A DNA stretch of 64,000 bases from an uncultured Chloroflexia bacterium (GTDB taxonomy: Bacteria > Chloroflexota > Limnocylindria > Limnocylindrales > CSP1-4), in NCBI GenBank assembly GCA_963778955.1, contig CAVZWI010000001.1:218823-282822 (forward strand), given 5' to 3'. The position numbers and the translations under genes were made by a program. Shown piece after piece: positions 40,404-56,778 of the stretch. How positions within the stretch are numbered: position 1 is the first letter of the stretch; the number at the start of each line of letters is the position of its first letter. Below the pieces are notes generated by a model, which was not told the origin of the DNA, did not search any database, and worked only from the letters and a program-made list of their open reading frames with translations.

Positions 40404-41276
40404 TCATGCAACAGACGCGTTGCGGGCGATCAGCTCCGCGACCGCGGGAGCCTGGTCCTCCTGCAGGAAGTGCTTGGCCGGAACGACATCGATCGACGTC
40501 AGGCGTGTGGCGGCGAGGGCCATGAAGCCGTACTTGCGAAGGGTCAGCATCGGGTCGAGGCCGCCCCAGACGAGCTTGACCGGGTAGCCCACGCGACGCG
40601 AGTCGATGACGGACTCGATGCGGCTGCGGTCATGACCCTCATGCACGTGGCGCATGATCTCCAGGTAGGTGGCACCCTTGTTCTGGCCCAAAGCAAGGTC
40701 GCGATAGGCCAGCACTTCCGGCATCGGCAGCGCCAGCTGGTCGGCGACGCCGACTCGGTACATCATCTGGCGCCATACCGTGGCAGATGCCATGGGGCCA
40801 CCCACGCCCCTGACAAGGCGAGCCAGGACCTCGCCGGGATACGGCCGGGCGGGCAATCGCACCATCGTGTCGAGGATGGTCAGCGACGCGATGCGATCGG
40901 GCGACTGCGCCACGACCTCGAAGCCCACAGGACCGCCAGCATCATGCAGCACGAGATGGCAGCGATCGACCCCAAGCGTCTCGATCGCGGCCCCTACCCA
41001 CGTGGCCAGTCCCCGGATGCTGTAGTCGAACTCCGTGGGCCGCTCTGCCAATCCCAGCCCGGGCCAATCGAAGCTGAGCGCGCGGAAGCCCCGCGACGCC
41101 AGCTCCGGGATGACCTTGCGGTACAGGAACGACGACGCCGGGAGGCCATGTATGAGCACGACCGGCTCGCCGTCCCCACTTGAGAGCAGGAAGCTCTGGA
41201 CCCCGGCTGCCGTGAAGAAGCTCCCGGCCTCGCGATGGGCTGCGACGACCTCCTTGGCCGCTGTCTCGTCGTTCAA
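40404..41276 (-). CDS. Alpha/beta-hydrolase, haloalkane dehalogenase/epoxide hydrolase-like (Asp nucleophile)
   Basis: LIHGLPASSFLYRK, DWPGLG, LVLHDAGG, WGGLDP and KHFLQED. Confidence 0.85.
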   Translation of the reverse strand: MNDETAAKEVVAAHREAGSFFTAAGVQSFLLSSGDGEPVVLIHGLPASSFLYRKVIPELASRGFRALSFDWPGLGLAERPTEFDYSIRGLATWVGAAIETLGVDRCHLVLHDAGGPVGFEVVAQSPDRIASLTILDTMVRLPARPYPGEVLARLVRGVGGPMASATVWRQMMYRVGVADQLALPMPEVLAYRDLALGQNKGATYLEIMRHVHEGHDRSRIESVIDSRRVGYPVKLVWGGLDPMLTLRKYGFMALAATRLTSIDVVPAKHFLQEDQAPAVAELIARNASVA

Positions 41277-41332
41277 GTGCGGATGCTCCTGCTACTCGGT
41301 GTGCGCCACTGGCTCGAAGATGGCCGGGGTCC

Positions 41333-42987
41333 CTAGGGCTGGACTTGCTCGGGCGCGGTGTCGTACGTCGCGGACCAGACGGCACCGGTGGAGCTGAGCT
41401 GACTCCGACAGTGCCTGCAGGCACTGTCCTGAGAGGAATGACTCGATCGAGCAGTTCTGCCCCTGGGGTGCCGTGAGGCCCATGCCGTTGAACTGCGTGA
41501 CCTGGGCGGAGGGCGGATCGTGCGGCAGCGGCAGGGTCGGGTCCGTCGACTGCGGGCAGGGTGCACCGGCTGTGACGGAGTTGGGACTCAGCGAGTCCGG
41601 CCACGTATCGTTGGGCCCCTTCTCACGGACGACCAGCAGGTTGGGCGCCTTGTTGTTCTGGACCCCGCTGCGAAGGATGTTCCAGCCGTTCGCCTTGACC
41701 ACCGCGTCGATCTTCTCGACCTGTTGGCTGGTGGCCGACTGCGGGTAGAGCACGATCGTGGCGCTGCCGTCGGCGTTGAGCTCGATCTGGCGGTTGCCGA
41801 TTCTGCGTGTTCTTGACGGTGCCCAGCGCATCGAGCTGCTTGGTTGCGCCGTAGACAACGACGCTGTAGAAGCGCAGGTCGTACTGGTCAGAGTCGTTGA
41901 CCGTGGAGGCCGTCGCGCCCCGGTAGTCGGGGAACGTCGGCACCTGGGGGATGTGCACCATCGAGACCACGTCGTTGGGCAGGTTGGCCATGACGTAGCC
42001 ACCACAGGCGTCGGGCGGATCACTCGTGGGCGGTGCTGCTGCGACATCAGCGTACGGAGAGTTGGCCGCGACGTTCCGGTAGAACTGGACTTGCTCCGGG
42101 ACAGGCGCGGGTGCGAACTCCCCGCCGAGGAAGCCAGCCACCGAACCGGTCTGCAGCTTGAAGCGCGGGACGTTGGCCAGGTCGTCACTGGTCGGACGAG
42201 GCGCCTTGACGAAGGTGAGGACCGGCTTGCCCGTGACCGGGTCGTACGCGATGCGCTTGGGCACCTGGCTCTGGGAGGCGCAGTCGTCGACAGGCGTGTC
42301 GGTGATCTCGCCGGTATCGGGGTCCGTCAGGAACGCGGCGATGGTGTGGACGGGCGAGTCGGTGGGCCCGCCATAGCCGAAACGATCCCAATCGCCGAGG
42401 TCGTCGTTGGAAAGCGACCAGTAGCTGCGAAAGACGAAGGACGTACCCTTGGTGCTGCCGATCTCGGGCAGGACGGCCACGTTCTCACCCGCCTCCTGCA
42501 TGGCGGTGATGACGCTATCGGGTGTGTCATTCGGCATGACCGTGATCTTGTAGTTGCGCTCTGGAGCCAGGATGGGTTGGCCCGACACGAAGGGGTTGGT
42601 GGAGCCGGGCTCCGGGATGATGTCCTGGTCGGACAGCTTGAACAGCGGCTGCCCCTTGGTGTTGTACAGGTACCAGGACATCCAGTAGGAATAGGGGAAC
42701 TCACCGCTGATCACATAGGCCCAGTCAGCGGTGTCATCGTTCAGCTTCTGGCCGGCGAGAGTGTAGCCGGCCGAGAAGCTTGGCTGCACGGGGTAGAAGT
42801 CGGCGGAGGATGCGTCCAGCACCTGCGGGCACAGGTTGCCCGCAGGGACCGAGCCGCCACTGTCGGTGGATGCGGCCGGCGGCGACGGGTCGGCTGCCGT
42901 GGCGGGCACTGCCGACAGGGCGAGCAGCAGCACCGCCGAAGCGGTGAGGGCGAACGATCGGTGGCCTGCTGGCCGAATCCTGCGCAT
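41333..42987 (-). CDS. Secreted protein, possibly DUF1214-like at the C-terminus (two apparent +1 frameshifts, at about 41801 and 41402)
   Basis: Signal peptide MRRIRPAGHRSFALTASAVLLLALSAVPATA; GEFPYSYWMSWYLY...DIIPEPGSTNPF; FYSVVVYG and IELNADGSATIVL. Span 1655 nt equals 551 codons plus 2. Confidence 0.7.
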
Positions 42988-43076
42988 GGTGTCTGTTTCC
43001 CTTCGATGCGACGCCGAGGCCCGGCACGTACTGCACGTGGTACTTGGCATTGAGACATGCGTGTCAGGGCGCGGCA

Positions 43077-43093
43077 TCATCCCATCCGCATGA
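43077..43093. promoter_or_regulatory. Inverted MalT-box-like site 1 (TCATCC-CATCC-GCATGA)
   Basis: About 90 nt upstream of the secreted-protein gene; one of six copies. Confidence 0.7.
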
Positions 43094-43118
43094 GAACAGG
43101 CTGACGTCGACGCGCCGC

Positions 43119-45368
43119 TCAGGCGCCGCGGGCAGCCTCGGGGCTCGCGGTGGGCGCAGGCTCCACTTCGCCCCTGCGCTGGCCCATGACGCCAAGGACG
43201 GTTCGCCACGTCGATGCCACGACGAGCGCAGGTCGCCGCACGACACCGATGGCCGGAACGACGATGAACATGCCCGGGATGCCCGCCACCGCGGACCCGG
43301 CCGGGATGGCCACCAGCACGATGGCCGGATGGATGTGCACGGTCTTGCCGTACACGATCGGGCTCACGATATTGCCGGTCACGATGTTGAACACCAGCGT
43401 CCAGATGGCCATGATCACGATGTCCGTCTGTGAGCCCACGGCGATGGTGATGAGGAAGGCGATACCGGTCGAGAGGAAGCCGCCGATATAGGGGATGAAG
43501 CCCAGGAAGAAGGAGAGCACGAAGACGGGCAGGGCCAGCGGCAGACCCAGCACGACCATGATCACGAACTGGCTGGCCGCACCCACGAACGAGATGGCCG
43601 CGGTCCCGATCATGTAGCCACCGAGCACCTCGAATGCGCGGCTGGCGGCGGCGTTGACCTCGTCGAGCGTACCCGGTCGCAAGCGCGAGATGGCACGGCC
43701 CCACAGCTCGCCACCGTCGCGCAGGAAGTAGAACGTGAGCAAGGTGCTCAGCAGGACGATGACGGCGGCCCCGGCGAGTGATTCACCGACCTGGGTGAGC
43801 GTCTTCACCATGCCGGCAAGACCACCCGCGGCGGCGGCGGCCGGGATCTGGGCATGACCGCCCAGCGCGTCGTTGGCGGCACGCACGCCGGCATTGACAC
43901 CGTCGGAGAGCTCCCCGACCTGTTCGACGAGCGAGACGACGGTCAGGGCGAGGATGGCGCCGATGGCGAGGAATCCGCCACCGACGGTGATGGCGGCGGC
44001 GCGAGATCGTGCATGGCCGCGCCGCATCAGCGACTGTACGAGCGGGTCGAGGGTCGCTGTGAGCACGAGCCCCAGGACGACGGGGATCAGGACCAGCGGG
44101 ATGGCGGTGAAGACGACGACGGCAAGCGCGATGAGCGCGATGGCCACGAGCAGCCGCCAGCTGGATTGCGCCATGCGGTCAAGCCACGCCGGCACCAACC
44201 CGGGCAGGTCCGGTGGCGGGTCCGGATCGACGACGGCCACCACTGCGCCTGCGACCGCCAGGACCACGGCGGTCACGGGCACGGCCACGAAGAGACCGAT
44301 GACGCCGGCCAGCTGGAACCCCGCGGGGAGAGCGATGAGCACGATGGCCGGGTGGATGTTGACGGTGCGGCCGTAGATCATGGGCCGCACACCGTAGCCA
44401 AGCACCAGGTTGCGCAGCCCGATGAGCGCCAGCATCACGAGCGTCGGCCCGGTGCCCAGGGCGGCCAGTGTCACGAGCAGCACGACGAGGGTGGCGATGA
44501 TGCCGCCGAAGTAGGGGATGTACCCGCCCAGGAAGACGAGCATGGCCAGCGGGACGGCCAGCGGTACCCCCAACACCCACATGAACAGCAGGTCGCTGAG
44601 GGCCACCAGCGCGGCCAGGACGGTGGTGCCTCGCAGGTAGCCACCGACCCGGGCCAGGGCATCGTCGCCGGCCCCGGTGATGCGTTCCCGCTTCTGTTCA
44701 CTGGCCTCCTGGAACAGCCACAGCCATGCCTTGTCGCCATCACGCAGGAAGAAGAAGATCAGGAACGTCGCCAGGATCCCGATCGTGGCGAGCTCACCGG
44801 CAGCCGCCACGAGCCCACCGCCATCGTGGCCAACGGCGTCGCGGACGATGCCGATCAGATCATGCGCGATGGTGCTGACGAATGCGGGGACCTGCAGGTC
44901 CGCCAGGCTGGTCTGAAGCTGGCTGAGACCCGCGTCGATACGGGTCAGGAGCTCAGCCAGATACGGCAGGAACGCGGCCACCAGGAGGAGCAGGACGCCG
45001 CCGATGCTGACCACCGCGGCGGCCCAGACGATGGCCGCTGAAGCCGTCCTCGATCGGCCGCCGTCGCGCAGCCGCAGGACCAGGGGCGCGAAGACCGCCG
45101 AGACGATGATGGCGACCAGGATGGAGGCCGTGACCGTCCACAGGGTGGCGGTGATGGCGCCAAGCACCAACAGGAAGCCGGCGACGGCCAGGATGCGCCA
45201 GCCGAGCGCGGCCAGGTTGACCAGCCAATCAGGGACGAGCTGGGGAGCAGTGACCGAATGGGCGGTGGAAGCAGCGACCTGGCCGGCCCCTGAAACCTCC
45301 GGACCGAGCGGCGGGCGGGCGTGGCTGCCCACCTCGTCGCTCGCTGATCGTTCCGTCGGACCGGCCAT
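43119..45368 (-). CDS. AI-2E family transporter with two tandem AI-2E domains
   Basis: Duplicated motif sets: FFFLRDG...GYLRG...IPYFG...YGRTVNIHP and FYFLRDG...GYMIG...IPYIG...YGKTVHIHP. Confidence 0.88.
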   Translation of the reverse strand: MAGPTERSASDEVGSHARPPLGPEVSGAGQVAASTAHSVTAPQLVPDWLVNLAALGWRILAVAGFLLVLGAITATLWTVTASILVAIIVSAVFAPLVLRLRDGGRSRTASAAIVWAAAVVSIGGVLLLLVAAFLPYLAELLTRIDAGLSQLQTSLADLQVPAFVSTIAHDLIGIVRDAVGHDGGGLVAAAGELATIGILATFLIFFFLRDGDKAWLWLFQEASEQKRERITGAGDDALARVGGYLRGTTVLAALVALSDLLFMWVLGVPLAVPLAMLVFLGGYIPYFGGIIATLVVLLVTLAALGTGPTLVMLALIGLRNLVLGYGVRPMIYGRTVNIHPAIVLIALPAGFQLAGVIGLFVAVPVTAVVLAVAGAVVAVVDPDPPPDLPGLVPAWLDRMAQSSWRLLVAIALIALAVVVFTAIPLVLIPVVLGLVLTATLDPLVQSLMRRGHARSRAAAITVGGGFLAIGAILALTVVSLVEQVGELSDGVNAGVRAANDALGGHAQIPAAAAAGGLAGMVKTLTQVGESLAGAAVIVLLSTLLTFYFLRDGGELWGRAISRLRPGTLDEVNAAASRAFEVLGGYMIGTAAISFVGAASQFVIMVVLGLPLALPVFVLSFFLGFIPYIGGFLSTGIAFLITIAVGSQTDIVIMAIWTLVFNIVTGNIVSPIVYGKTVHIHPAIVLVAIPAGSAVAGIPGMFIVVPAIGVVRRPALVVASTWRTVLGVMGQRRGEVEPAPTASPEAARGA

Positions 45369-45405
45369 GGCTCCTCCGCTGGGGGCTAACGTGGGGTCCG
45401 GGTGA

Positions 45406-45585
45406 CTAGAAGCGGCGGCGCCCCGGGGTGACGGCAGCGCCTACCACGGCCGCCTTGGCGACGGGGGAGGGACCGGGCTTGACGGCAGCGCCCACGACCG
45501 CCGCCTTGGCGACGGGGGAGGGACCGGGCTTGACGGCAGCGGTCACGACCGCGGCCTTGGCGACACGAGATGGTCTGAGCGGCAT
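45406..45585 (-). CDS. 59-aa tandem-repeat microprotein (not in the ORF track)
   Basis: TAAGGAG Shine-Dalgarno overlapping the upstream stop, ATG 45585, translation MPLRPSRVAKAAVVTAAVKPGPSPVAKAAVVGAAVKPGPSPVAKAAVVGAAVTPGRRRF*, TAG at 45406-45408. Confidence 0.75.
   Translation of the reverse strand: MPLRPSRVAKAAVVTAAVKPGPSPVAKAAVVGAAVKPGPSPVAKAAVVGAAVTPGRRRF
45429..45562. repeat. 51-bp tandem repeat, about 2.6 copies
   Basis: Units start at 45429, 45480 and 45531 (TGACGGCAGCG...GCCTTGGCGAC...); differences fall mostly at third codon positions of the minus-strand frame. Confidence 0.9.
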
Positions 45586-45595
45586 ATCAAGCTCC

Positions 45596-46045
45596 TTACG
45601 CTTCGGCCGCCGCGTCGGCTTCGACGGCGGCGATGATGGCCTGGATGGGGATGCGGCCGTCAGCGATCAGCTGGCCGCCGGCGCGACGGACCGATGACGC
45701 GAACGGTGCCGCCCACAGATTCTCATAGATAAGGACACCGGCCACGCTGCCGGGAGCCATGGCCTCAGCGAGGGTCGCGACGTCGTCCGCAGCGAGCGTT
45801 TCGACGAGCTGTTCTTCGATGTGCTCAAGCTCGCCGAGCTCAGCAAGATCGGAGACCTCATCGGCCTCGAAGGAGCCGTCCTCGTCCTTGACGATGATGA
45901 CCAGGTCCATGATACGGATGGTTCCCGCATCGTGAAGCTTGACCAGCTCGGTCACGCTCTCACCGGTGAAATTCTGGTGACCGGCGGGGAATTCGACGAT
46001 CAGGTAGTCGACGGGCCCCAACTCGTCGATCGATCTCTCGGTCAT
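45596..46045 (-). CDS. DUF6325-like protein
   Basis: LGPVDYLIVEFP...IRIMDLVIIVKDEDG...GVLIYENLWAAPF...GGQLIADGRIP; GAAAGGAAAG before ATG 46045. Confidence 0.8.
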   Translation of the reverse strand: MTERSIDELGPVDYLIVEFPAGHQNFTGESVTELVKLHDAGTIRIMDLVIIVKDEDGSFEADEVSDLAELGELEHIEEQLVETLAADDVATLAEAMAPGSVAGVLIYENLWAAPFASSVRRAGGQLIADGRIPIQAIIAAVEADAAAEA

Positions 46046-46120
46046 GCTCTTTCCTTTCGATGTGGCCGATTTGCCCGCCACTGGCAGGCACGATTGACGC
46101 ACGACACGAACGGCATCGCA

Positions 46121-46137
46121 TCATCCGGACTGGATGA
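46121..46137. promoter_or_regulatory. Inverted MalT-box-like site 2 (TCATCC-GGACT-GGATGA)
   Basis: Perfect inverted hexamers 75 nt upstream of the DUF6325-like ATG. Confidence 0.8.
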
Positions 46138-46258
46138 CACGGACAGTATGGCCGACCTGGCCGGTCGAATCGCGGAGCATCGGCTATCCGAAGCGGTCCA
46201 GACACGCTCAGCCGTCCGGCATGCTGGCGCGGTGGAGCGCCTCGGAACCTGGGCCGGA

Positions 46259-49163
46259 TCGAGCCGGCGGCGCCGGCTCCGACCGCCTGTGCATTGTGCT
46301 GCGCGTGGAGCTTGAGCTCGTCCGCCTGGATCATCGGCTTCAAGTCGAAGACGACGTTCTTGACGGTGCCGGTGAACGCGTATGGGGCCCTGTCCTCGTA
46401 GGCGAGATCGACGACGCCGCCGTTGTCACGACCGATGTCCATACCGGCATAGGTGGTGAAGATCAGCGAGACCGTCTTCTCCAGGCGACCTTCGCCGATC
46501 TGCTTGTCGTTCGCCCAAAGCGTCACCCGGCCACCCGCGGCGTGCTCTGTCGAATCCGCTTCGAACAGCATCTTGACGGTGACCGCTCCGGTGGGGATGG
46601 GCTCGGTCGAGGTCTGCTTGTAGGTCTCGATGCCGAGGTACTGGTAGGTGTGGTTGAGCAGGCCCTTCTCGTCGACCCACAGGGCGAAGCCCCCGATGAA
46701 GTCGGCGAAGGCCACGAGGACACCCTCGGCGCCATCGGCCGGCACATCGACGTTCGCCTCGATGGCGTACGAGCGCCCGTAGATACGGGGGATCATCGAG
46801 GTCTGGATGTTCTGGACATCGCCGGCGTAGTTGAACCGGGTGATGGTCGGCAGCGGTGGCAGATCGCCCATCCACACCGAGAAGGGCGCCAGCAGCGGCA
46901 GCACGTGATTCCGCTCGGCCTCTTCCCAGAACAGGTCCTGCAGCTCCTTGAGCTTCTCGGGGTTCTCGGCGGCCAGATTCCTGGCCTGAGAGAAGTCGTC
47001 GGGCAGGTAGTAGAGCTCCCAGACGTCATCGTCTGTGCTGTACTTGCCAGGGGCGAAGCGGGCCAGGGTCTCCGGCGTGAAGTCCCAGGGAGCCTTGTCC
47101 AGCTTGGTGCAGGCCCACCAGCCGTCCTTGTACATCGCCCGGCTGCCGAGCATCTCGAAGTACTGAACGCTGTGCCGCTCCTCGGCCTTCGGCTCATCGA
47201 AGGTGTAGAGGAAGCTGGTGCCGTCCATGGGCTCCTGCTCGATGCCGTCGACCATGCTGGGCGCCGGGATGCCGACCGCCTCGAGGATCGTGGGAACGAT
47301 GTCGATGCAGTGGGTGAACTGCTCGCGCAGGTCACCGCCAGCCGGGATATGCCCCGGCCAGGCCACGACCATCGGGTCGCGGGTGCCCCCCAGGTGGCTG
47401 GCCATCTGCTTGCCCCACTGGAACGGCGTGTTGTTGGCGTGGGCCCAGGCAGCCGCGAAGTGCGGCGCCGTGTGGAAGCCGCCGAGGGCCTCGATGCCAC
47501 CGAACTTCTCGATGATCTTCAGCTGCTGGTCGGCGTCGAGGATGGCGCCATTGAAGAAGGTCGTCTCGTTGAACGAGCCCGTCAGGGTGCCTTCCATGCT
47601 GGAGCCGTTGTCACCCCAGATGTAGATGATGAGCGTGTTCTCCAGGTCGCCCATCTCCTCGATGGCGTCGAGCAGGCGGCCGATGTTCCAGTCGGCGTTC
47701 TCAGAATAGCCCGCGAAGACCTCCATCTGGCGCGCATAGAGCTTCTTCTGGGCATCGGTGAGTGAGTCCCAGGCCGGGAAGAGCTCGGGCCGCTCACTCA
47801 ACTCGGTGTCCTGCGGGACCACGCCGAGCTGCTTCTGGCGCTCCAGCGTAGCCTCACGGTACGCGTCCCAGCCCTCGTCGAACTTGCCCGCGTACCTGTC
47901 CGCCCACTGCTTGGCGACATGGTGGGGCGCGTGACTGCAGCCGGTGGAGTAGTACATCATCCAGGGCTTCTCGGAGTCCTGCGCCCGGACCGCGTGCAGC
48001 CACTCGACGGACTTGTCGGTGATGTCGTCGGGGAAGTAGTACTCGTGGCCGTCCTTGCCCTGGGGCACCCCGATGGTGGTGTTGTCCACGGTGATGATGG
48101 GGTCGTACTGCCCGGCTGCACCGGTGAGGAAGCCCCACCAATGGTCGAAGCCCCAGGACTGGGGCCAGTGGTCGAAGGGGCCGGCCGCGCCCATCTGGCT
48201 CCCCGGGGTCAGGTGCCACTTGCCGAAGCCACCGGTGACGTAGCCGTTCTCCCGCAGGATCCGGGGCAGGGCCGTGCAGCTCCGAGGTCGTTCACCGGTG
48301 TAGCCGGGATACGGAGCGGGCAGCTCAGCGATGGTGCCCATGCCCACGCGATGGTGATTGCGACCGGTGAGCAGCGCGGCCCGCGTGGGCGAGCAGACGG
48401 CGGTCACGTGGAAGCGGTTGTAGGTCAGGCCCATCTGCTGGACGCGGGTCAGGGTCGGGGTGGAGATGCCACCACCGAAGGTGTCCGGGCCACCGAAACC
48501 GGCGTCGTCGATGAGCACGACCAGCACGTTGGGTGCGCCTTCGGGGGCCTTGGGGCTGGGCATGATGGTCCAGTCGCCGACGGACTGGTCCAGCGTGCGG
48601 CCCATGGTGCCGCCGAACTTGCGGTCGGGGATGGGCAGCACGGTCCGGTCGGGCTTGAACTTGCCCATCGCCTCCATGAGGGAGTCCTTGAGCGCCGCGG
48701 TGCCCTTCTTGTCGGTCTGGACGACGGACTTCAGGAGTGAGCCCGAGAGTGACTGCTCGACAGCCAGGCGCTGCCCCTCGTCGAACTCGGCGATGATGGC
48801 TGCCGAGCCGGACGGCAGCGCCTCTCCGATCTTGTCGTGGAACCCCGCTGCCAGCTTGTGGTCGGCGAACTTGCCGACGATGGCGCCGCCGGCTGCGCCG
48901 ACGACGGTCGCAGCCAGCAGTGGTGGCGCCGCGAGGCCGACCAGGAAGCCCACGCTGCCGCCCCACTTGGCACCAGTGCGACCGAGATGGTCGCCGGTCT
49001 GCTGGACGACGACGTTGCCGTCCGTGTCATGGGTGATGAGGATGGCGGCCTCGATGGCGACGGAATTCGCCTGTACCTTCTCGATGAGCGCATCGAAGTC
49101 GGTGGTCGCGGTGGCCACGTCTTGGTAGCCGGCGACGAGAACGTCAGTGAGTTCCTGAGCCAT
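46259..49163 (-). CDS. atsB: Arylsulfatase with an N-terminal DUF1269-like domain (AtsB-type); true stop probably disrupted by an inserted base at 46261
   Basis: PNVLVVLIDDAG, formylglycine motif CSPTRAALLTG, FGKWH, GCSHAPHH and WGDNG. Protein ends QAVGAGAAG, followed by T(C)GA. Confidence 0.88.
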
Positions 49164-49250
49164 CGGATCGAACCTCCAAGATCGCCGGTCCGGGCGAAGA
49201 TCCGCTACCGGCGGGTATCGGTGGCGATCGGTCTTCCGCCACCAGGGTCG

Positions 49251-49790
49251 TCAGTCTCGCGCGGCAACCAGCGCCGTGTGCGCTTCGGCCTCCTCGGCCG
49301 TCATCAGGCCGATGGCAACCAGGTCGACGGGATCGATGAAGCCTTCGTCGATCCTGAAGCCACCCGCGCGGCCAAGCGCGTCCCGCAGTGGCACCGCCCA
49401 ATGGTGCTCGATGAGCAGCAGGGCCGCGGCCGAATCGCGCGGGATGCTGGCCACGACGTCCCAGGCATCCTCTTCGGTGAAGACCCCGGCGTCCGTGCTG
49501 GCCGCATACTCGGCTCCAAGCTCGGCTCCGCTCTCTGCGCCCTCCTCGCCGGCGTACCCGAGCCCGATCAGCGCACCGATCTTGGAACCGAGCTCGATCG
49601 ACTCGTCCTCGCTGAGGTTGCCCAGGCGCATGCTGGCGACATCGCCGTCGGCACTCTTGACGACCGTGAGGCTGTCGATGAGACGGATCGTATCCGACTC
49701 GCGGAGTCGTTCGATCTCGTCGAGGACCTCGCCCTGGAAGTCCGGGTGGTCAAAGCCGATCACGAGCAGCTGGATGGGTCCGATGGCCAT
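49251..49790 (-). CDS. Second DUF6325/DUF1269-like protein
   Basis: MAIGPIQLLVIGF...IRLIDSLTVVKSADG...ALLLIEHHWAVPLRDAL; AAGGAGG Shine-Dalgarno. Confidence 0.78.
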   Translation of the reverse strand: MAIGPIQLLVIGFDHPDFQGEVLDEIERLRESDTIRLIDSLTVVKSADGDVASMRLGNLSEDESIELGSKIGALIGLGYAGEEGAESGAELGAEYAASTDAGVFTEEDAWDVVASIPRDSAAALLLIEHHWAVPLRDALGRAGGFRIDEGFIDPVDLVAIGLMTAEEAEAHTALVAARD

Positions 49791-50026
49791 GATGTGTGTC
49801 CTCCTTGGGTTGGCGATGGGGATCTTGACCGGCTGGCAGCCGGGCAGCGGGGGGCCGCCTACGGTGCGGCAGACTCAACGGCCGTCTGGGCGTCCGCCGC
49901 GACCGATTCGACTGCCTCGGCAGCAGCGGAGGCCGCCTCCTGGGCCTCGACGAGGCCGCACTGTGCGGTACCGGCCTGGACTCCGGCCTTCTGGCGAGAC
50001 CATAGGTCGCACGCAGCGCAGCGCCA

Positions 50027-50043
50027 TCATCCGTTCTGGATGA
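50027..50043. promoter_or_regulatory. Inverted MalT-box-like site 3 (TCATCC-GTTCT-GGATGA)
   Basis: Perfect inverted hexamers between the divergent DUF6325-like and BASS genes. Confidence 0.8.
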
Positions 50044-50093
50044 TTTCACGGCCGCGAGTTGAGGAACGCCTGAGCCGCCGGTACAGTCCACCT

Positions 50094-51023
50094 GTGCCCG
50101 ATACCTCCTTCTTGCAGCCGCTACTGGAGGCGGCAGTGACGCCGCTCATCGCGTTCACGCTGTGGACGGCCGGCCTGGGCATGGGCATGTCCATCCAGGC
50201 GGCGGACATCATCGAGTCCCTGGGCCGGCGCCGACTCGTGGCCGGCACGATCGTGCTGGACATCGCCCTGGTGCCGTTCGCCATGTGGGCGATGATCCAG
50301 CTGCTGCAGATCGAGGATGGCCTCGCCACTGGCCTGCTCCTCGTCGCGTTCGCCTCGGCTGGGCCACTGGGGATCAAGCTGGCAGCCGTGGCGGGCGCCG
50401 ATACGGCATACGCCATCGGCATCGTGGTGGCCCTCGAGCTCGCCAACATCGTGATCGTGCCCGCGTGGGTATCGTTGCTGGGTGTCGCGACCGGCAGCGA
50501 GGTCGTCATCGAGATCATCGTGGCGCTGGTCGTGTTCGTGCTGTTGCCGATCGGCGTCGGGCAGGCGATCGGTCGCATCAGACGGGGTGGGTCAGAGAGG
50601 TTCGTCTCCCTGGCGGTGCGGGCCTCCAGCGTCGGTCTTGCGCTCACCATCGCGACCATCGTCGCGCGCGACATCCAGGTCGTCTCGACGGCCATCGCGA
50701 GCGCGGCCGGGCTGGCCGCTGCAGCCGTCGTCGGCTTCGCCCTGGTGGCAGGCTGGTTCATCGGCGGGCCGGAGCGGCCGACCAAGCTCGCCACGAGCCT
50801 GGTCACCGGCACGCGTGCGAACGCGGTCGCGTTGGCTGTCGCCTCCACCGCCTTCGCGGCCGACCCGCAGGTCCTCACGGGGGCCCTGACAGCCGGGCTG
50901 GTCTCGATCACCCTGCCCGGCCTGCTGGCCGTGGTGGTCCGCCGATGGCGGGGGTCGCCGGTGCCGGCGGCTCAGCGACCCGGGAAGCGCCGCGGGGCGG
51001 ACCCGGCCAGCCCCAGCCGCTGA
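50094..51023 (+). CDS. Bile acid:Na+ symporter (BASS/ACR3-like) family transporter
   Basis: GLGMGMS, ALVPFAMW, GLLLVAFASAGP, A(D)TAYAIGIV and SLVTGTRANAVAL; about 9 TM segments. GTG start at 50094 is inferred. Confidence 0.78.
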   Translation: MPDTSFLQPLLEAAVTPLIAFTLWTAGLGMGMSIQAADIIESLGRRRLVAGTIVLDIALVPFAMWAMIQLLQIEDGLATGLLLVAFASAGPLGIKLAAVAGADTAYAIGIVVALELANIVIVPAWVSLLGVATGSEVVIEIIVALVVFVLLPIGVGQAIGRIRRGGSERFVSLAVRASSVGLALTIATIVARDIQVVSTAIASAAGLAAAAVVGFALVAGWFIGGPERPTKLATSLVTGTRANAVALAVASTAFAADPQVLTGALTAGLVSITLPGLLAVVVRRWRGSPVPAAQRPGKRRGADPASPSR

Positions 51024-51032
51024 GGATCTTCC

Positions 51033-51332
51033 TTAGCCGTTGAGGATCTTCTGCTTCTGCGTCGCGAACTCCTCGTCGGTGAGGGCACCCGATTCGTGCA
51101 GGGTCGCAAGCTTCTGGATCTCGGCGATCTTGGCATCCATCGGGTCGGCGGCCGACGGCGGCGCCTGGGGGGCCGCGGCTTGCGCCTGCGCCAGCCCGGC
51201 TTCGTATGCGGCCTGTTGGTCCGCCGCCGACTGCGCCTGGTACTGCTGCTCCATCTGCTGTTCGTGATGGCGCGCGACCGCAGCGCCGGCAACCATGCCA
51301 CGTCGGCGCATGCGCCGTCCTCGTCCCAACAT
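51033..51332 (-). CDS. SHOCT-domain small protein with an Arg/Gly N-terminus and Gln/Ala linker
   Basis: C-terminal IAEIQKLATLHESGALTDEEFATQKQKIL matches SHOCT; AAGGAG Shine-Dalgarno. Confidence 0.88.
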   Translation of the reverse strand: MLGRGRRMRRRGMVAGAAVARHHEQQMEQQYQAQSAADQQAAYEAGLAQAQAAAPQAPPSAADPMDAKIAEIQKLATLHESGALTDEEFATQKQKILNG

Positions 51333-51451
51333 GGGTCTTCTCCTTGCGATACATCGGATGGCGGATCATCCATGGCCGTCGGCCCGTCTGTTCGGATCGG
51401 GCAGTGCTGACGGCTACTCGCCCCACCATAGGGCGGCACACTCGGAGGGCC

Positions 51452-51468
51452 TCATCCGGAATGGATGA
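51452..51468. promoter_or_regulatory. Inverted MalT-box-like site 4 (TCATCC-GGAAT-GGATGA)
   Basis: Perfect inverted hexamers about 120 nt upstream of the SHOCT gene. Confidence 0.8.
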
Positions 51469-51604
51469 ACCGCCAGGCACAACGTACCGGCAGGGCTGAC
51501 GAGCTCGGGCCGCGGCACGAGGCAGGAGCCCTGACCGCGGGCATGGCCGAACCCGCGGAGCCGGGCTCGCGCAGCCGAGCGCGTCGCCTCAGGGGCCGGC
51601 GGAG

Positions 51605-52039
51605 CTACCGATTCCTGTTGCCGCGGGGCGATCCCGGTAGCGGCTGCCTCGGGATACCCTCGAAGGCCCCATCGAGGTCGTATCCGACCGAGGCAGCGAC
51701 CAACGGCGCCGCCGTAACGACCCGCGCCGTGCCCACCGCGGGGGCGACCGCCAGCAGCACATCGACGACGTCCTCGGCCGTGGCACCCGCCCCGAAGGCG
51801 GCCGCCACGGCGGCGTCGATGGCCGCAGATCCCGCGTCGATAGCGATGAGTGCCCCAAGGATGACCAGCCGGCGTGTGCGATCGTCGAGGATGTGCGCCT
51901 TGTCATCCACGTCACCTGCTCGCCGGACACCGACGTACTCCCCCATCATCGCGGCCACCAAGGCCTCGTCATTCAACGCGAGACGCCGGAGCGTTTCCTC
52001 GTAGCCTGGAGGCTGCTGGTGTTGCGTCGATCGAGTCAT
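51605..52039 (-). CDS. Carboxymuconolactone decarboxylase/AhpD-like protein without CxxC
   Basis: LDDRTRRLVILGALIAIDA...AAFGAGATAEDVVDVLLAVAPAVGTARV; contains no Cys. Confidence 0.7.
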   Translation of the reverse strand: MTRSTQHQQPPGYEETLRRLALNDEALVAAMMGEYVGVRRAGDVDDKAHILDDRTRRLVILGALIAIDAGSAAIDAAVAAAFGAGATAEDVVDVLLAVAPAVGTARVVTAAPLVAASVGYDLDGAFEGIPRQPLPGSPRGNRNR

Positions 52040-52119
52040 CGTCGGGAGACACACTCCACGAAGCGCCGTGTCACCCGGGAGGGAACACTGACCGTCCCAT
52101 TGGACCGCCCAGGACAGGC

Positions 52120-54408
52120 TCACGCATCATCCCGACGGGGTGAAACCCCGACTGTCCTGGCCGTCGAGGTGGTCACCCAGCTCGCCGCGTCCAGCACGCT
52201 CGGAACAGCCGCGGGGTCCAAAAGGCCGAAGCGCACGGCCGCGACCACCGCTTCCGAGCGCGAGGAGGCGCCCAGCTTGCGGTAGATGGCGAGAGCTTGT
52301 GTCTTCACCGTGTTGGGCGAAAGGAACAGCCGCTCACCGATCTCCCGGAATGAAAGATGGGTCGCCAGCCAGGGCACCAGGCGAAGCTCGGCGTCCGTCA
52401 GGGCAGACGCACCTGACGCCGACTCTAAGTGAGTCGATACCTGCTCCTTCAGCCGTCGCGTTTCGTCCTCCAGCGCGCCCATCCCGGGCCGACGCCGCAG
52501 GATGTCGCTGGCCTCGCGCAAGAGCAGGCGCGCGGCGGTCGCATCGGCCAAGGCAAGGTGCGCCTGGGCCAGGTCCAGGCGAGCGATGAGCGCGGGCCCC
52601 GGAATGGCCCACGTCAGCAGTGGCCGCACCGTCTGGGCATGGGCAAGGTAGGAACGAGCCAGGGCGAGATCGGCGTCGGCAGTGATGGCCAGGCGCGCCA
52701 GGAGTGCGTCGAACATCGCCTGCATGCCCTGGCCGCCGATACCGTTACGGGCGCGCAACCGTGCCGCCTGTTCAAGGTGCTGCCTGGCGCCCCCCAGGTC
52801 ACCCGCGTCGAGCAGTCCTCTCGCCAGCAGGGCGTAGGCGATCGAGCGCGAGTTGGCATCGGGGCCCTGGGGCCGGTATGGATCGACGACCTCGAGCAAG
52901 GCGGCCTCGCTCTCGGCGGGCCGGCCGTTCATCATCTGGCACAGCCCCAGCGTGGTCAGCGCAGCGCCCCGCCAGGGGCTCCCGCTCCCGATCAGCTCAC
53001 AGGCACGGAGGGCATCCGTCAGTGCGGCGGATGCGCCCGACCGACAGGCGACCGCCGACGCGAGGGCACTCCACCCGGTGCTCTCCTTGCGACCGCCGGC
53101 AGCCGCGTCGTGGAGGGATCGCGCCCAGCGTTCGGCACGCTCTCCTTCCCCGCCGAACGCCAGGACGAAATGCCCGGACATGGCCAGGAGTGGATCGCGG
53201 CGAACCAGGTCGGACTCCTCCGCCCAGTCCAGCCAACGTCGCACCGTGGGCGTGCGGCCGGCGTTGAAGGTGGGCTGCACGAACATGCGGATGAGCCGCG
53301 ACGTGATGTCGTCGTTGCCTGACTCCATGGCGTAGCTGACCGCCTCCACGGGATCGTCATGCAGGGCATACCACTCAGCGGTGCGGCCGCGCAATGTCGC
53401 CAGCAGGTCTGGGTCCGTGCGGTTCAGCTCAGCCGAGAGTGCTTCGCGGAACATGTCGTGGTAGCGGTAGTGATCGCCCTGCACACGCGTCACGAAGGCG
53501 TTGGAGTCGCAGAGCCGGCCGAGCAGGATGGCTGAGCCGCTCCGCTCAAGCACAGCGTCACAGAGGGGTGCGGAGAGCTCCCGCAGGACGGAGGTCCGGA
53601 GCAGGAAGTCGACCTCGTCGGTCGACATGCGCGAGAGGACCTCCGAGTGGATGTACTGACCGAGCAGATCGCGCCCGCGCGACGGCTGGCGACTGGGCGC
53701 CCGAGCGGGATCACCCATGGCGCTGAGAAGCAGCCCGCTGACCCAACCCTCGCAGGCCTGGTTGAGCTGAGCGCCTTGCCCCGCAGCCATCTCGATGCCA
53801 GAGGTGCGCAGCAGCTCCCGGGCCTCGTCATCTGAGAGCCTGAGCTGGTCGACACCGATCTCCACGATGCGTCGTTCCAGGTGGAGCCTGGGCCCGGCCA
53901 GCCCCGTCGCCGCGCGACCGGCGATGACGAGCTGCGACCCCGCGGGCACCTGCAGCGCCAGCGAGTTGACCACATCCAGGCACTCGGGTTCGCTGATCTC
54001 GTGGATGTCATCGATGACCTGGATGAACGGCGACCTCTTCGTCAGCTCAGCGGAGATGCGTGGCATGAGCCGCGACCAGATCGAGGCCGTGGGCATCTCA
54101 AGCGCTTCCTCGATGGCGCGAGCCGATGGCCAGGCTTCCAGGATGGCGAGGGCGATACTGGTGGCCAGAGTCATCGGATCGTTGTCGCGTCGATCGAGCG
54201 ACAGCCACACGACCGGCAGGTCGGCGGACCCGACCCAGCTGTGAAGTAGCGTCGACTTGCCGTATCCGGCTGGTGCGATGACGGTGACGACCCCAGCCTC
54301 CAGCGGATCGGGCCTGAGGCCGAGCAGGCGCTCCCTGGCCACGAGTCGTCGTCGGACCGTGGGCGGCTGCAACTTGGTGACAGCCGAGGGCGATACGATC
54401 GTGGTCAA
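52120..54408 (-). CDS. MalT-like STAND ATPase with a C-terminal LuxR HTH (transcriptional activator)
   Basis: TKLQPP..RRRLVARERL, P-loop APAGYGKST, WLSLDRRDND, Walker B VIDDIH, CEGWVSGL, YRYHDMF, TPR-like helical region, and HTH LTDAELRLVPWLATHLSFREIGERLFLSPNTVKTQALAIYRKLG. Start codon uncertain. Confidence 0.92.
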   Translation of the reverse strand: MTTIVSPSAVTKLQPPTVRRRLVARERLLGLRPDPLEAGVVTVIAPAGYGKSTLLHSWVGSADLPVVWLSLDRRDNDPMTLATSIALAILEAWPSARAIEEALEMPTASIWSRLMPRISAELTKRSPFIQVIDDIHEISEPECLDVVNSLALQVPAGSQLVIAGRAATGLAGPRLHLERRIVEIGVDQLRLSDDEARELLRTSGIEMAAGQGAQLNQACEGWVSGLLLSAMGDPARAPSRQPSRGRDLLGQYIHSEVLSRMSTDEVDFLLRTSVLRELSAPLCDAVLERSGSAILLGRLCDSNAFVTRVQGDHYRYHDMFREALSAELNRTDPDLLATLRGRTAEWYALHDDPVEAVSYAMESGNDDITSRLIRMFVQPTFNAGRTPTVRRWLDWAEESDLVRRDPLLAMSGHFVLAFGGEGERAERWARSLHDAAAGGRKESTGWSALASAVACRSGASAALTDALRACELIGSGSPWRGAALTTLGLCQMMNGRPAESEAALLEVVDPYRPQGPDANSRSIAYALLARGLLDAGDLGGARQHLEQAARLRARNGIGGQGMQAMFDALLARLAITADADLALARSYLAHAQTVRPLLTWAIPGPALIARLDLAQAHLALADATAARLLLREASDILRRRPGMGALEDETRRLKEQVSTHLESASGASALTDAELRLVPWLATHLSFREIGERLFLSPNTVKTQALAIYRKLGASSRSEAVVAAVRFGLLDPAAVPSVLDAASWVTTSTARTVGVSPRRDDA
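52127..52143. promoter_or_regulatory. Inverted MalT-box-like site 5 (TCATCC-CGACG-GGGTGA), inside the last codons of the regulator gene
   Basis: One mismatch; 88 nt upstream of the CMD-like ATG. Confidence 0.65.
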
Positions 54409-54493
54409 CGCGAGCCGAGCAATTTGACACCCTCGAGATGAGTGGACGCCAATGGGGACCGTAGCACGCATACTATGGCCGATGATTGCGGTT

Positions 54494-54510
54494 TCATCCC
54501 TTTCGGATGT
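54494..54510. promoter_or_regulatory. Inverted MalT-box-like site 6 (TCATCC-CTTTC-GGATGT)
   Basis: One mismatch; lies between the divergent regulator and holin-phosphodiesterase genes. Confidence 0.7.
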
Positions 54511-54615: not shown

Positions 54616-56778
54616 ATGAACAGCCTGAACAAGCTCGTCGCACTCTATCGAACGCAGATCGGGCTGCTGTGGCACTGGCGCCTGGGCCGTGGTGCGCTCG
54701 TCAAGCGAGCACTCATCTCCCTGGTCGCGGCCCTCATCGCCTTCTGGCTCACGGCCTGGCTCGTGCCGGGCCTCCTGGAGATCACCGAGCTCGGCGGCGG
54801 TCTGCTTGCGATCCTGTTCATCAGTGCCCTCAACCTGCTGGTGCGCCCGGCCCTGCTGGTGCTGGTGGCCGGACGCTTCGTGCTGCTGGTGATCGCGACA
54901 CTGCTCTTCCAGGCGCTCGTCATCTGGTTGCTCACGCCGCTCGTCCCGGGCGTCACGGTGGAGGGCGGCATCCTCGGCGCCCTGCTGGTGTCGTTCATCC
55001 TTGGCTTCTTCACCGGCGCCGCCGGTATCCTCTTCGGCCTGGGTGAGGACGACTCCTACTACGGCGCGCTCGTGCGCACGCTGGCCACGCGCCGGGACGA
55101 CGTCATCCACAGCGACGAACCCGGACTCATCATCATCCAGGTCGACGGGCTGTCGCACGATGTCCTGTCGCATTCGCTGCGCGCGGGACGCGTGCCCTAC
55201 CTCAGCCGCCTGGTCCGCTCGGGAAGCCACAAGCTCGCCCACTGGACGGCGCTGCTGCCGTCGACGACACCGGCCAGCCAGGCCGGCATCCTGCATGGCA
55301 ACAACGACGGCATCCCCAACTTCCGCTGGTACGAGAAGGAGACCGGGCAGCTGCTGGTGGCCAACCATCCCGAGGACGCGACCGTCATCGAGTCTCGCAT
55401 CTCGAATGGCGAGGGCCTGCTGAGCCCGGGCGGCGCCAGCATCAGCAACATCTTCACCGGGGACGGCGACCGCGCCTTCCTGGTGATGTCCACCATCAAG
55501 GTCAAGGAGCGCGGCCTGGGCCAGTCCAACGCGTTCGCGCACTACTTCGCGAGCCCCTACAACTACCTCACCATGCTGGCGCAATACCTTGCCGAGGTGG
55601 TCAAGGAGAACATCCAGTCGCGGCGCCAGACCCGTGCCGGCATCGAACCACGGATGCATCGAGGCTTCCCCTACCCCTGGGTGCGTGGCGCGACCAATGT
55701 GGCCCTGCGTGCGCTGGGCACGTCACTGATCATCGAAGAGATGATGCGCGGCACGCCCGTCGTCTACATGGACTACACCGACTACGACGAGATCGCGCAC
55801 CACAGCGGACCCGAGCGCGCCGAGTCGCTCGACGCGCTCGACGGCGTGGACCGCGAGCTGGCGACGCTGGCCAAGGCGGCCGGGGACGCGCCGCGACCCT
55901 ATCGCTTCGTCTACCTCGCTGACCATGGCCAGAGCCTGGGGGCCACATTCCTGCAGCGTTACGGCGTGACCTTGCAGGACGTGGTGCGTTCGCTCATGGG
56001 CGGAACGGCTTCGGTGGCTGCCGCGACCGCGCAGATCGAGGACTGGGGCCCGCTCAACACGTTCCTCAGCGAAGTCGGCCAGACAGACAGCGTGGCCGGC
56101 TCGGTCACCCGCACCGCGACGCGCCACCGCAGCAAGGACGGCCAGGTCGACCTCGGGCCCGACCAAGGGTTCGTGGTCGAGGGCACGAGCGCTGACACCA
56201 AGGCAGGGTCCGGCGAGGACGAGCCCGCGGACCTCATCGTGGTCGCCGGCGGCAACCTCGCGCTGGTGTACTTCACCGCCATCGACGGGCGCGCCGACTT
56301 GCAGCAGATCGAGGCGGCCTATCCCGACCTCGTGGACGCGCTCGCCAACCATCCGGGTATCGGCGTGCTCATCGTGCGCTCGGACGCCCACGGGCTGCTG
56401 GCTGTCGGCGGCGGCGGCATCCACTACCTCGACGAGGACCGCGTCGAAGGCGTCGACCCGCTCGCCGTCTATGGCGAGCATGCGTCCGCAGCCGTGCGGC
56501 GGCTCGACGAGATCGAGCATGTCGGCGACCTCGCGGTCATCAGCACCTATGACCCCGAGACCGGCGATATCGCCGCCTTCGAGGAGCTCATCGGCGCCCA
56601 CGGCGGGCTCGGTGGACCGCAGACCAAGCCGTTCCTGTTGCATCCGGCCGACTGGGAGCTGGACCTCGCGCCGCTCCTTGGTGCACCGATGGTCTACAAG
56701 CAGCTCCGGCACTGGATGGAGGACGAGCTGGGTATGACCTTCGGGCCTCAGCCCGGACGAGACGACGCGACAACCTGA
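54616..56778 (+). CDS. Fusion of a 4-TM phage-holin-like (superfamily IV-type) domain and an alkaline-phosphatase-superfamily phosphodiesterase domain
   Basis: N-terminal TM block (LVAALIAFWLTAWLVPG...LNLLVRPAL...NTLLFQ-like IATLLFQ...PGVTVEGG...ALLVS); C-terminal IQVDGLS, LPSTTPASQAGILHG, DYDEIAHH and ADHGQ. Confidence 0.82.
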   Translation: MNSLNKLVALYRTQIGLLWHWRLGRGALVKRALISLVAALIAFWLTAWLVPGLLEITELGGGLLAILFISALNLLVRPALLVLVAGRFVLLVIATLLFQALVIWLLTPLVPGVTVEGGILGALLVSFILGFFTGAAGILFGLGEDDSYYGALVRTLATRRDDVIHSDEPGLIIIQVDGLSHDVLSHSLRAGRVPYLSRLVRSGSHKLAHWTALLPSTTPASQAGILHGNNDGIPNFRWYEKETGQLLVANHPEDATVIESRISNGEGLLSPGGASISNIFTGDGDRAFLVMSTIKVKERGLGQSNAFAHYFASPYNYLTMLAQYLAEVVKENIQSRRQTRAGIEPRMHRGFPYPWVRGATNVALRALGTSLIIEEMMRGTPVVYMDYTDYDEIAHHSGPERAESLDALDGVDRELATLAKAAGDAPRPYRFVYLADHGQSLGATFLQRYGVTLQDVVRSLMGGTASVAAATAQIEDWGPLNTFLSEVGQTDSVAGSVTRTATRHRSKDGQVDLGPDQGFVVEGTSADTKAGSGEDEPADLIVVAGGNLALVYFTAIDGRADLQQIEAAYPDLVDALANHPGIGVLIVRSDAHGLLAVGGGGIHYLDEDRVEGVDPLAVYGEHASAAVRRLDEIEHVGDLAVISTYDPETGDIAAFEELIGAHGGLGGPQTKPFLLHPADWELDLAPLLGAPMVYKQLRHWMEDELGMTFGPQPGRDDATT

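Follow-up and report, generated by a model that had tools for sequence, protein, structure and literature searches.

Probable activator function of a palindromic MalT-type box at five or more promoters near a MalT-like regulator gene of an uncultured Chloroflexota bacterium

In Actinoplanes sp. SE50/110, MEME identified the palindrome 5'-TCATCC-5nt-GGATGA-3' before 17 mapped start sites of a 51-gene island, with the 3' end of the motif 34.4 ± 1.0 nucleotides (nt) ahead of the start and over the -35 region (Droste et al. 2020, PMC7567727). Deletion of malT (ACSP50_3915) lowers 42 of the 51 island genes and its overexpression raises 39; no maltose gene is affected by these changes, and expression of the island depends on maltose (PMC7567727). 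The island encodes a SHOCT protein, three DUF1269 proteins, an AI-2E transporter, an alpha-amylase and a second MalT-like protein, relatives add DUF2252 and ppk2, and the motif recurs in four other Micromonosporaceae (PMC7567727). The same paper notes the likeness of the motif to the enterobacterial core GGA(T/G)GA, and summarises that in E. coli the promoter-proximal MalT box replaces the -35 element (PMC7567727). A literature search found no later paper on the motif. Here we analyze six copies of this palindrome, numbered boxes 1 to 6, around a MalT-like regulator gene in a 64-kb stretch of DNA from an uncultured Chloroflexota bacterium (the window; C1:218823-282822 of a genome of 3.25 Mb and 68% GC). 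The box type, its position and its reading as an activator site are already known from Actinoplanes, and this is a new example of them; since the motif is already in the literature, a claim of high novelty is not justified.

The window and the whole genome were scanned for the 17-bp pattern TCATCC-N5-GGATGA at up to one mismatch. An earlier prediction from the sequence, referred to here as the original prediction, had listed six sites, three perfect and three with one mismatch, and the pattern search agrees with it at all six. Box 2 (46121..46137), box 3 (50027..50043) and box 4 (51452..51468) are perfect, while box 1 (43077..43093; TCATGC-N5-GGATGA, mismatch GCATGA) and box 5 (52127..52143; TCACCC-N5-GGATGA, mismatch GGGTGA) each carry one mismatch. 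These five are oriented on the minus strand; box 6 (54494..54510) is unoriented and reads ACATCC-N5-GGATGA on the minus strand, with one mismatch (GGATGT). Every site in the window is an inverted repeat with a 5-nt spacer, and none shows the direct-repeat arrangement of the enterobacterial MalT boxes. Box 5 sits inside the regulator gene, in its last seven codons, and box 2 inside the read-through tail of a sulfatase open reading frame (ORF). A mask for intergenic calls, based on third-position GC content (GC3), over-extended the ORFs and labelled several true boxes as coding, and was therefore kept out of the statistics.

The six window sites compare with 0.15 expected (standard deviation 0.39), and none of 100 dinucleotide-preserving shuffles gave six. 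The earlier scan by eye had seen no full copy outside 43-54.5 kb, and no seventh copy at up to one mismatch was found anywhere in the 64-kb window. Genome-wide there are 12 sites at this threshold, five of them perfect (base composition alone would give ~0.08): two at C1:740706 and C1:743679, besides boxes 2-4 of the window. Each of these perfect copies borders one or other of two MalT-like regulator genes. The four remaining one-mismatch hits lie inside coding DNA, and their number equals the chance level of ~3.6. The pattern read backwards gave no hits in the genomes of the genus. A motif scan of window and genome had been proposed as a check, and the pattern search confirms the observation, with an excess over shuffles and base composition.

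Boxes 1-5 are each followed on the minus strand by a predicted -10-like hexamer at the 21-22 nt described originally, and the five hexamers were found as given there: CTCAAT (43049..43054), GTCAAT (46093..46098) and TATGGT (49999..50004), each 22 nt after boxes 1, 2 and 3, respectively, TATGGT (51425..51430), 21 nt after box 4, and TCCAAT (52099..52104), 22 nt after box 5. In boxes 1, 2, 3 and 5 a TG dinucleotide stands directly 3' of the box on the minus strand, within the 22-nt spacer. The geometry was also analyzed for all sites found, oriented both ways and with near-duplicates removed. A TG flank is present at 36 of the 109 oriented sites (p = 5e-19). The set of 27 non-redundant sites with this flank has a T 28 nt after the box (+28) in 18 cases (p = 5e-9); positions +26 and +27 are rich in A, and the others from +3 to +40 carry no information. 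The T at +28 together with the A-rich +26/+27 therefore places a -10-like element at a fixed phase to the box.

If transcription starts 6-7 nt past the +28 T, the end of the box would lie 34-35 nt before the start, and the proximal half-site would take the place of the -35 element; this predicted distance is the sum of the 21-22 nt spacer, the 6-nt hexamer and ~6-7 nt, and box 6 does not fit it. Inspection of the sequence at boxes 1-5 revealed no -35-like hexamer at the expected place. A consensus promoter scan missed all of the box promoters, which the lack of a -35 element would lead one to expect, and it placed no terminators at the boxes. A reading of the proximal half-site as the -35 element of an alternative sigma factor was rejected, because the 22 nt from half-site to -10-like hexamer is too long.

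Conservation was examined in four related loci, L001 and L002 (regulator 90-91% identical), L046 (74%) and the rearranged L039, in which boxes and hexamers form conserved islands between diverged spacers and flanks. In L039 (genome G021) the stretch from the regulator gene to the sulfatase gene is lost, and boxes 1, 2 and 6 persist. Box 1 is identical in L039 and in a further locus, L045, though the DNA upstream of it in L039 is unrelated; its hexamer is CTCAAT in L045 and CTCAGT in L039. Box 2 is kept in L001, L046 and L039 despite diverged flanks and spacer, with unrelated DNA upstream in the window, and its hexamer reads GTCAAT in L001 and L046 and GTTAAT in L039. Box 3 has a TTATCC half in L046, where it stands directly ahead of a gene for a DUF1269-sulfatase fusion, and its hexamer TATGGT is invariant in L001, L002 and L046. 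The box 5 hexamer TCCAAT is found in L001, L002 and the distant L048, and is TCCACT in L046.

The regulator gene (52120..54408, minus strand) encodes a MalT-like LAL/STAND protein with a nucleotide-binding oligomerisation domain (NOD), a TPR sensor region and a LuxR/GerE helix-turn-helix. Its Walker A (GYGKS) and VIDD motifs are intact, and Pfam matches comprise AAA_22, TPR_12 and TPR_19 (both below Pfam cut-offs) and GerE (E = 8e-9, residues 727-782 of the 820-amino-acid ORF), the last aligning with the MalT helix-turn-helix. Compared with E. coli MalT, identity is 27% over the 373-residue NOD (E = 4e-26) and 32% over the helix-turn-helix. Orthologues 90% identical to the regulator match PF25873 (WHD_MalT) and PF13424 (TPR_12), and many homologues match PF17874 (TPR_MalT). 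The adjacent gene, which the original prediction had called MalT-like, encodes a true relative of MalT, a MalT-type STAND/LAL regulator. Translation probably begins at the TTG at 54408 and not at the upstream ATGs, as judged from L046, which has GTG where the window has this TTG; similarity among orthologues begins only there (window 54389-54408). Dimeric binding of a palindrome through the helix-turn-helix is the usual mode of LuxR/GerE-type DNA-binding domains. The box-bearing regulators share the recognition-helix pattern K-[TS]-[QH]-A-[LI]-[AS], and two homologues without nearby boxes differ from it; in this small sample, a tie between the pattern and the presence of boxes is suggestive only.

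Taken together, it is highly probable that the palindromic MalT box is bound by the neighbouring STAND-LuxR protein and serves as an activator site over the -35 region of at least five promoters. The same had been claimed originally, and it stands as the best reading of the conservation, the linkage to the regulator, the phasing with the -10-like element and the Actinoplanes genetics. The basis is the statistics, the footprinting, the linkage and a genetically tested homologous system; activation is carried over from Actinoplanes, and direct binding, the start sites and the nature of the signal are what we infer from these. In the proposed mechanism, a signal would bind the TPR-like sensor region, the NOD would exchange ADP for ATP and the protein would multimerise, so that each inverted pair of GGATGA half-sites could be occupied by paired C-terminal LuxR-type helix-turn-helix domains. 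The half-site nearer the promoter would stand in for the -35 element at boxes 1-5, where the box would end 34-35 nt before the predicted start, and the bound protein would thus recruit RNA polymerase to promoters that lack this element. Five minus-strand units would thereby be switched on: the CMD-fold gene; the SHOCT gene; the genes for DUF6325b and the DUF1269-sulfatase; those for DUF6325a, a small ORF and a double AI-2E transporter; and the secreted-protein gene, probably with a hydrolase gene. A second MalT-like paralog of the genome would control a second island, with DUF6325, P-type ATPase, PPK2-like and SulP genes.

Several points weigh against this reading. In three of the hexamers, CTCAAT, GTCAAT and TCCAAT, the second position is not the A of a TANNNT -10 element, and the -10 assignments are themselves predictions from the sequence. 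The Actinoplanes paper contains no electrophoretic mobility shift assay, chromatin immunoprecipitation or footprint (PMC7567727). When hexamers at 17-22 nt from box 6 were compared, none was conserved, and neither side has a conserved one at 21-22 nt. Boxes facing regulator genes generally lack both the TG flank and the +28 T, and autoregulation is therefore not supported. Finally, the recognition helices of the two paralogs are near-identical and a PAS-LuxR gene lies behind boxes in G443, so the assignment of the boxes to the adjacent regulator is a matter of linkage.

This last point leads to the alternative that the boxes are bound by another LuxR-type protein, either the second paralog (C1:740882-743251) or a small PAS-LuxR protein, with the adjacent gene being a target or co-regulator. 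The two paralogs are 34% identical overall, yet have nearly the same recognition helices (TVKTQALAIY and TVKTHALSVY), with perfect boxes at both loci; the persistence of boxes in L039 without the adjacent regulator gene, the PAS-GerE protein adjoining boxes in G443 and L048, and the two MalT-like genes of the Actinoplanes island (PMC7567727) also fit such a binder. However, the window locus contains no PAS-LuxR gene, the box is found with MalT-like genes at many independent loci, frequently right where the regulator gene ends, and in Actinoplanes deletion of ACSP50_3915 alone abolishes expression (PMC7567727), which makes another binder unlikely. A different objection concerns the sign of regulation, since repressors, too, classically bind over the -35 region, where a bound protein could block RNA polymerase until a signal relieves the repression, and at least one member of the LAL family (SCO6993, Streptomyces coelicolor) is reported to be a negative regulator. 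Boxes 1-5, however, have no recognisable -35 hexamer to occlude, unlike the promoter of the SBF-family transporter gene in the same locus, and both the Actinoplanes system (deletion lowers and overexpression raises expression; PMC7567727) and MalT itself are activating. We therefore give repression only a very small chance.

The palindromes could also act as RNA hairpins, or be non-regulatory repeats spread with a mobile island, given that every box has the makings of a hairpin (6-bp stem, 5-nt loop) and that the arrangement of the island varies between genomes and its occurrence in the phylum is patchy. With the predicted -10 elements downstream of them, however, the boxes would be left out of the transcripts that follow; they are followed by no T-run, and they tolerate changes in a single half-site (TCGTCC, TCACCC, GGAGGA) without a matching change in the other arm. 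Hairpins or repeats would also leave the fixed phase with the -10-like element unexplained, and we consider this account extremely improbable. Binding by the neighbouring STAND-LuxR regulator, with activation from the -35 position, is the reading retained in what follows.

Box 6 lies between the regulator gene and a divergent gene (54616..56778, plus strand), whose product is a fusion of a Holin_4_2-like membrane domain and a type I phosphodiesterase. The box retains its place 105 nt ahead of the phosphodiesterase gene even where the regulator gene is missing, as in L039. Conserved -10-like elements were found at a distance of ~30 nt towards the regulator gene (TACGGT/TAGGGT) and of ~32-33 nt in the opposite direction. 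The candidate hexamers CATAGT/TAGTAT and GAGAGT were rejected, as they are not conserved in L046 and L039. Box 6 may serve autoregulation or control of the divergent gene.

The genes of the locus were mapped by GC3 and Pfam, and those downstream of boxes 1-5 are all on the minus strand. Past the regulator gene, and downstream of box 5, the first gene (51605..52039) encodes a CMD-fold protein of 144 amino acids without cysteine, and a small SHOCT-domain protein (51033..51332) is encoded downstream of box 4. The box 3 unit begins with the gene for a DUF6325-like protein, DUF6325b (49251..49790), followed by that for a DUF1269 membrane domain fused to an arylsulfatase (45960..49163). Downstream of box 2, the gene for DUF6325a (45596..46045) is first, and the unit continues with a small ORF and the gene for a tandem-duplicated AI-2E family transporter (43119..45368). 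The box 1 unit comprises a gene for a secreted protein without a family match (41623..42987) and then, probably, an alpha/beta-hydrolase gene. A Pfam scan of the window genes revealed no maltose or maltodextrin uptake or catabolism genes downstream of the six boxes.

The gene for the SBF-family transporter (50094..51023, plus strand) is divergent from the box 3 unit, and its control by box 3 is uncertain. Its promoter is sigma-70-like, with TTGAGG at 50059 and, after a 17-nt spacer, TACAGT at 50082 (plus strand); it is conserved, with TAGAGT as the -10 element in L046, and indicates that the organism also uses standard promoters. The -10 element ends 6 nt before the GTG start (window 50059-50096), and the predicted transcript is probably leaderless.

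Several features of these units differ between genomes. The sulfatase ORF overruns its normal end (residue 967 in L001) by ~100 codons, straight through box 2 (window 45960-46300). L001 (18381-19860) and L046 carry ~1.4 kb of extra DNA at this place, including a gene for a 423-amino-acid membrane protein with a likeness to ClC-type channels; a deletion therefore seems to have removed this gene from the window, and the sulfatase residues after ~967 seem to be read-through caused by it. Box 3 and the DUF6325b start are separated by ~240 nt in the window (49800-50000), ~440 nt in L001 (14417-14853) and ~750 nt in L002 (14407-15157), and the leader past the -10 element cannot be aligned between the three. 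The secreted-protein gene has one frame change near 41790 (TVKNTQ / RQIELNADGS), which marks a pseudogene or else stems from an indel in the assembly. Identity to G001 is 100% for both the secreted protein and the alpha/beta hydrolase (L045, G001:C6 vs window 40404-42987), but only 90% for the regulator 10 kb away, which points to recent recombination or exchange within the genus.

The second MalT-like paralog of the genome (C1:740882-743251) has its two perfect boxes, at 740706 and 743679, at either end. In the island around it (C1:740186-749606), box 740706 lies between a DUF6325 gene and the paralog gene, a CMD-like ORF lies past the paralog, and box 743679 is followed by a short DUF6325-like ORF, a P-type ATPase, a PPK2-like fragment and a SulP transporter. 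Paralogs were further surveyed at 30 loci from other genomes of the genus (regulators 31-44% identical, 1.5-kb flanks each, ~140 kb in total), revealing ~12 further sites at up to one mismatch, including the variants TCGTCC and GGAGGA, against ~0.15 expected. Box-bearing loci were also found beside ~40%-identical homologues from other sources: L048 has a perfect box over the regulator stop codon, followed after 22 nt by TCCAAT and then a CMD-like gene; L049 has four one-mismatch boxes; and in L051, which belongs to a different family of the class, a box lies at the 3' end of the regulator. No box was found within 10 kb of the regulator (38-39% identical) of L050, an ENA contig. The neighbours of this regulator are GH15, isoamylase, GH63-like and phosphoglucomutase genes, and L050 may represent a branch truly linked to alpha-glucan metabolism, with another operator.

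A metagenome-assembled genome labelled Actinomycetes, which holds L003, contains 23 sites at up to one mismatch against none for the reversed control. Genes behind its boxes encode DUF7144, PAS-LuxR, two SHOCT, LPG_synthase_TM, HAD hydrolase, alpha-amylase-family, DUF2252, sulfatase and DUF6325 proteins, and PPK1 with an ECF sigma factor; by reading of the sequence and not by Pfam, boxes also precede cytochrome bd and MIP channel genes. An orthologue of DUF6325b lies behind a box in G443, and the Holin_4_2-phosphodiesterase fusion is also encoded near the regulator in L003 and L048. Homologues of the regulator at E <= 1e-60 are present in 23 of 31 genomes of the genus vs two of 60 other genomes of the class, and none of the 400 sampled Chloroflexota genomes besides has more than three perfect boxes. 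The perfect box gave ~80 hits vs ~17 for the reversed control in the 400 Chloroflexota genomes, and 29 vs 9 in 120 genomes around G443, a modest overall excess; the reversed control is non-palindromic and thus imperfect, and these phylum-wide counts, in which box clusters are confined to few genomes, were used only for patchiness. The patchy distribution of the system fits horizontal spread.

The pairing of the regulator with a CMD-fold gene is recurrent: a cysteine-free CMD-fold gene lies directly 3' of a MalT-like gene in at least 14 paralogous loci, including L008, L012, L013, L018, L019, L029, L033, L044, L048, L049 and L051. A box at the regulator 3' end, ahead of the CMD-fold gene, is also present in L013, L048 and L051, and a CMD-like gene lies directly behind a box in L009, L011 and L021. 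Having no cysteine, the CMD-fold protein is not an AhpD-type peroxidase, and it may be a partner of the regulator.

These observations tie about a dozen function-unknown genes in an uncultured Chloroflexota genus, among them those for DUF6325, the DUF1269-sulfatase, SHOCT, the double AI-2E transporter, the holin-like phosphodiesterase and the CMD-fold protein, to one sensor and a few promoters. To the Actinoplanes picture they add a Chloroflexota genus with patchy occurrence, two paralogous regulators with one box, the recurrent CMD-fold pairing and the atypical box 6, and they indicate that the Actinoplanes 'MalT' box is not peculiar to Micromonosporaceae. The recurrence of the same 12 specified bases, the same promoter phase and overlapping genes across a phylum boundary argues for a general physiological programme, rather than maltose use, and for horizontal movement. 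As a speculative extension, to which we give a modest minority chance, one horizontally mobile regulon of Actinomycetota and Chloroflexota might comprise the box, the MalT-like sensor and a variable complement of membrane and stress-type genes (DUF6325, DUF1269, SHOCT, AI-2E, DUF7144, PPK, P-type ATPase, SulP and sulfatase). Several paralogous STAND sensors per genome would then converge on one operator, feeding different signals into a common programme, with the CMD-fold protein as a feedback partner comparable to the protein inhibitors of E. coli MalT. No new mechanism is implied, and Actinoplanes, being culturable and genetically tractable, is the better place for the remaining questions.

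Compared with the MalT of E. coli and Klebsiella (box GGGGA(T/G)GAGG), the regulator shares the combination of NOD ATPase, sensor repeats and LuxR helix-turn-helix, and the half-site GGATGA equals the core GGA(T/G)GA. E. coli has its boxes mainly as direct repeats, whereas those described here are strict inverted repeats with a 5-nt spacer; the targets there are maltose and maltodextrin genes, unlike here, and the known partners of E. coli MalT, namely MalK, MalY, Aes and CRP, have no counterpart in the locus. The actinomycete LAL regulators have the same large ATP-binding LuxR-family architecture, but those studied are mostly pathway-specific for antibiotic clusters, with other or unknown operators, in contrast to the membrane and stress-type targets of this locus.

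The Actinoplanes MalT region differs in its host (Actinomycetota, Micromonosporaceae, vs Chloroflexota), in its size (17 start sites and 51 genes vs six boxes and ~10 genes) and in its arginine and amino-acid genes, which have no equivalent here. Conversely, the sulfatase, the holin-like phosphodiesterase, DUF6325 and the CMD-fold gene past the regulator belong to the Chloroflexota locus and are not reported in Actinoplanes. Both regions have the identical motif, which in Actinoplanes overlaps the -35 region at 34.4 ± 1.0 nt from the start and here is predicted to do so at 34-35 nt. Both also have many boxes clustered around a MalT-like LuxR regulator, two MalT-like paralogs and an island rearranged between relatives. 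The SHOCT, DUF1269 and AI-2E families are shared with the window, and alpha-amylase, DUF2252 and polyphosphate kinase with related islands. The likeness to the Actinoplanes regulon thus rests on motif, phase, clustering and gene families.

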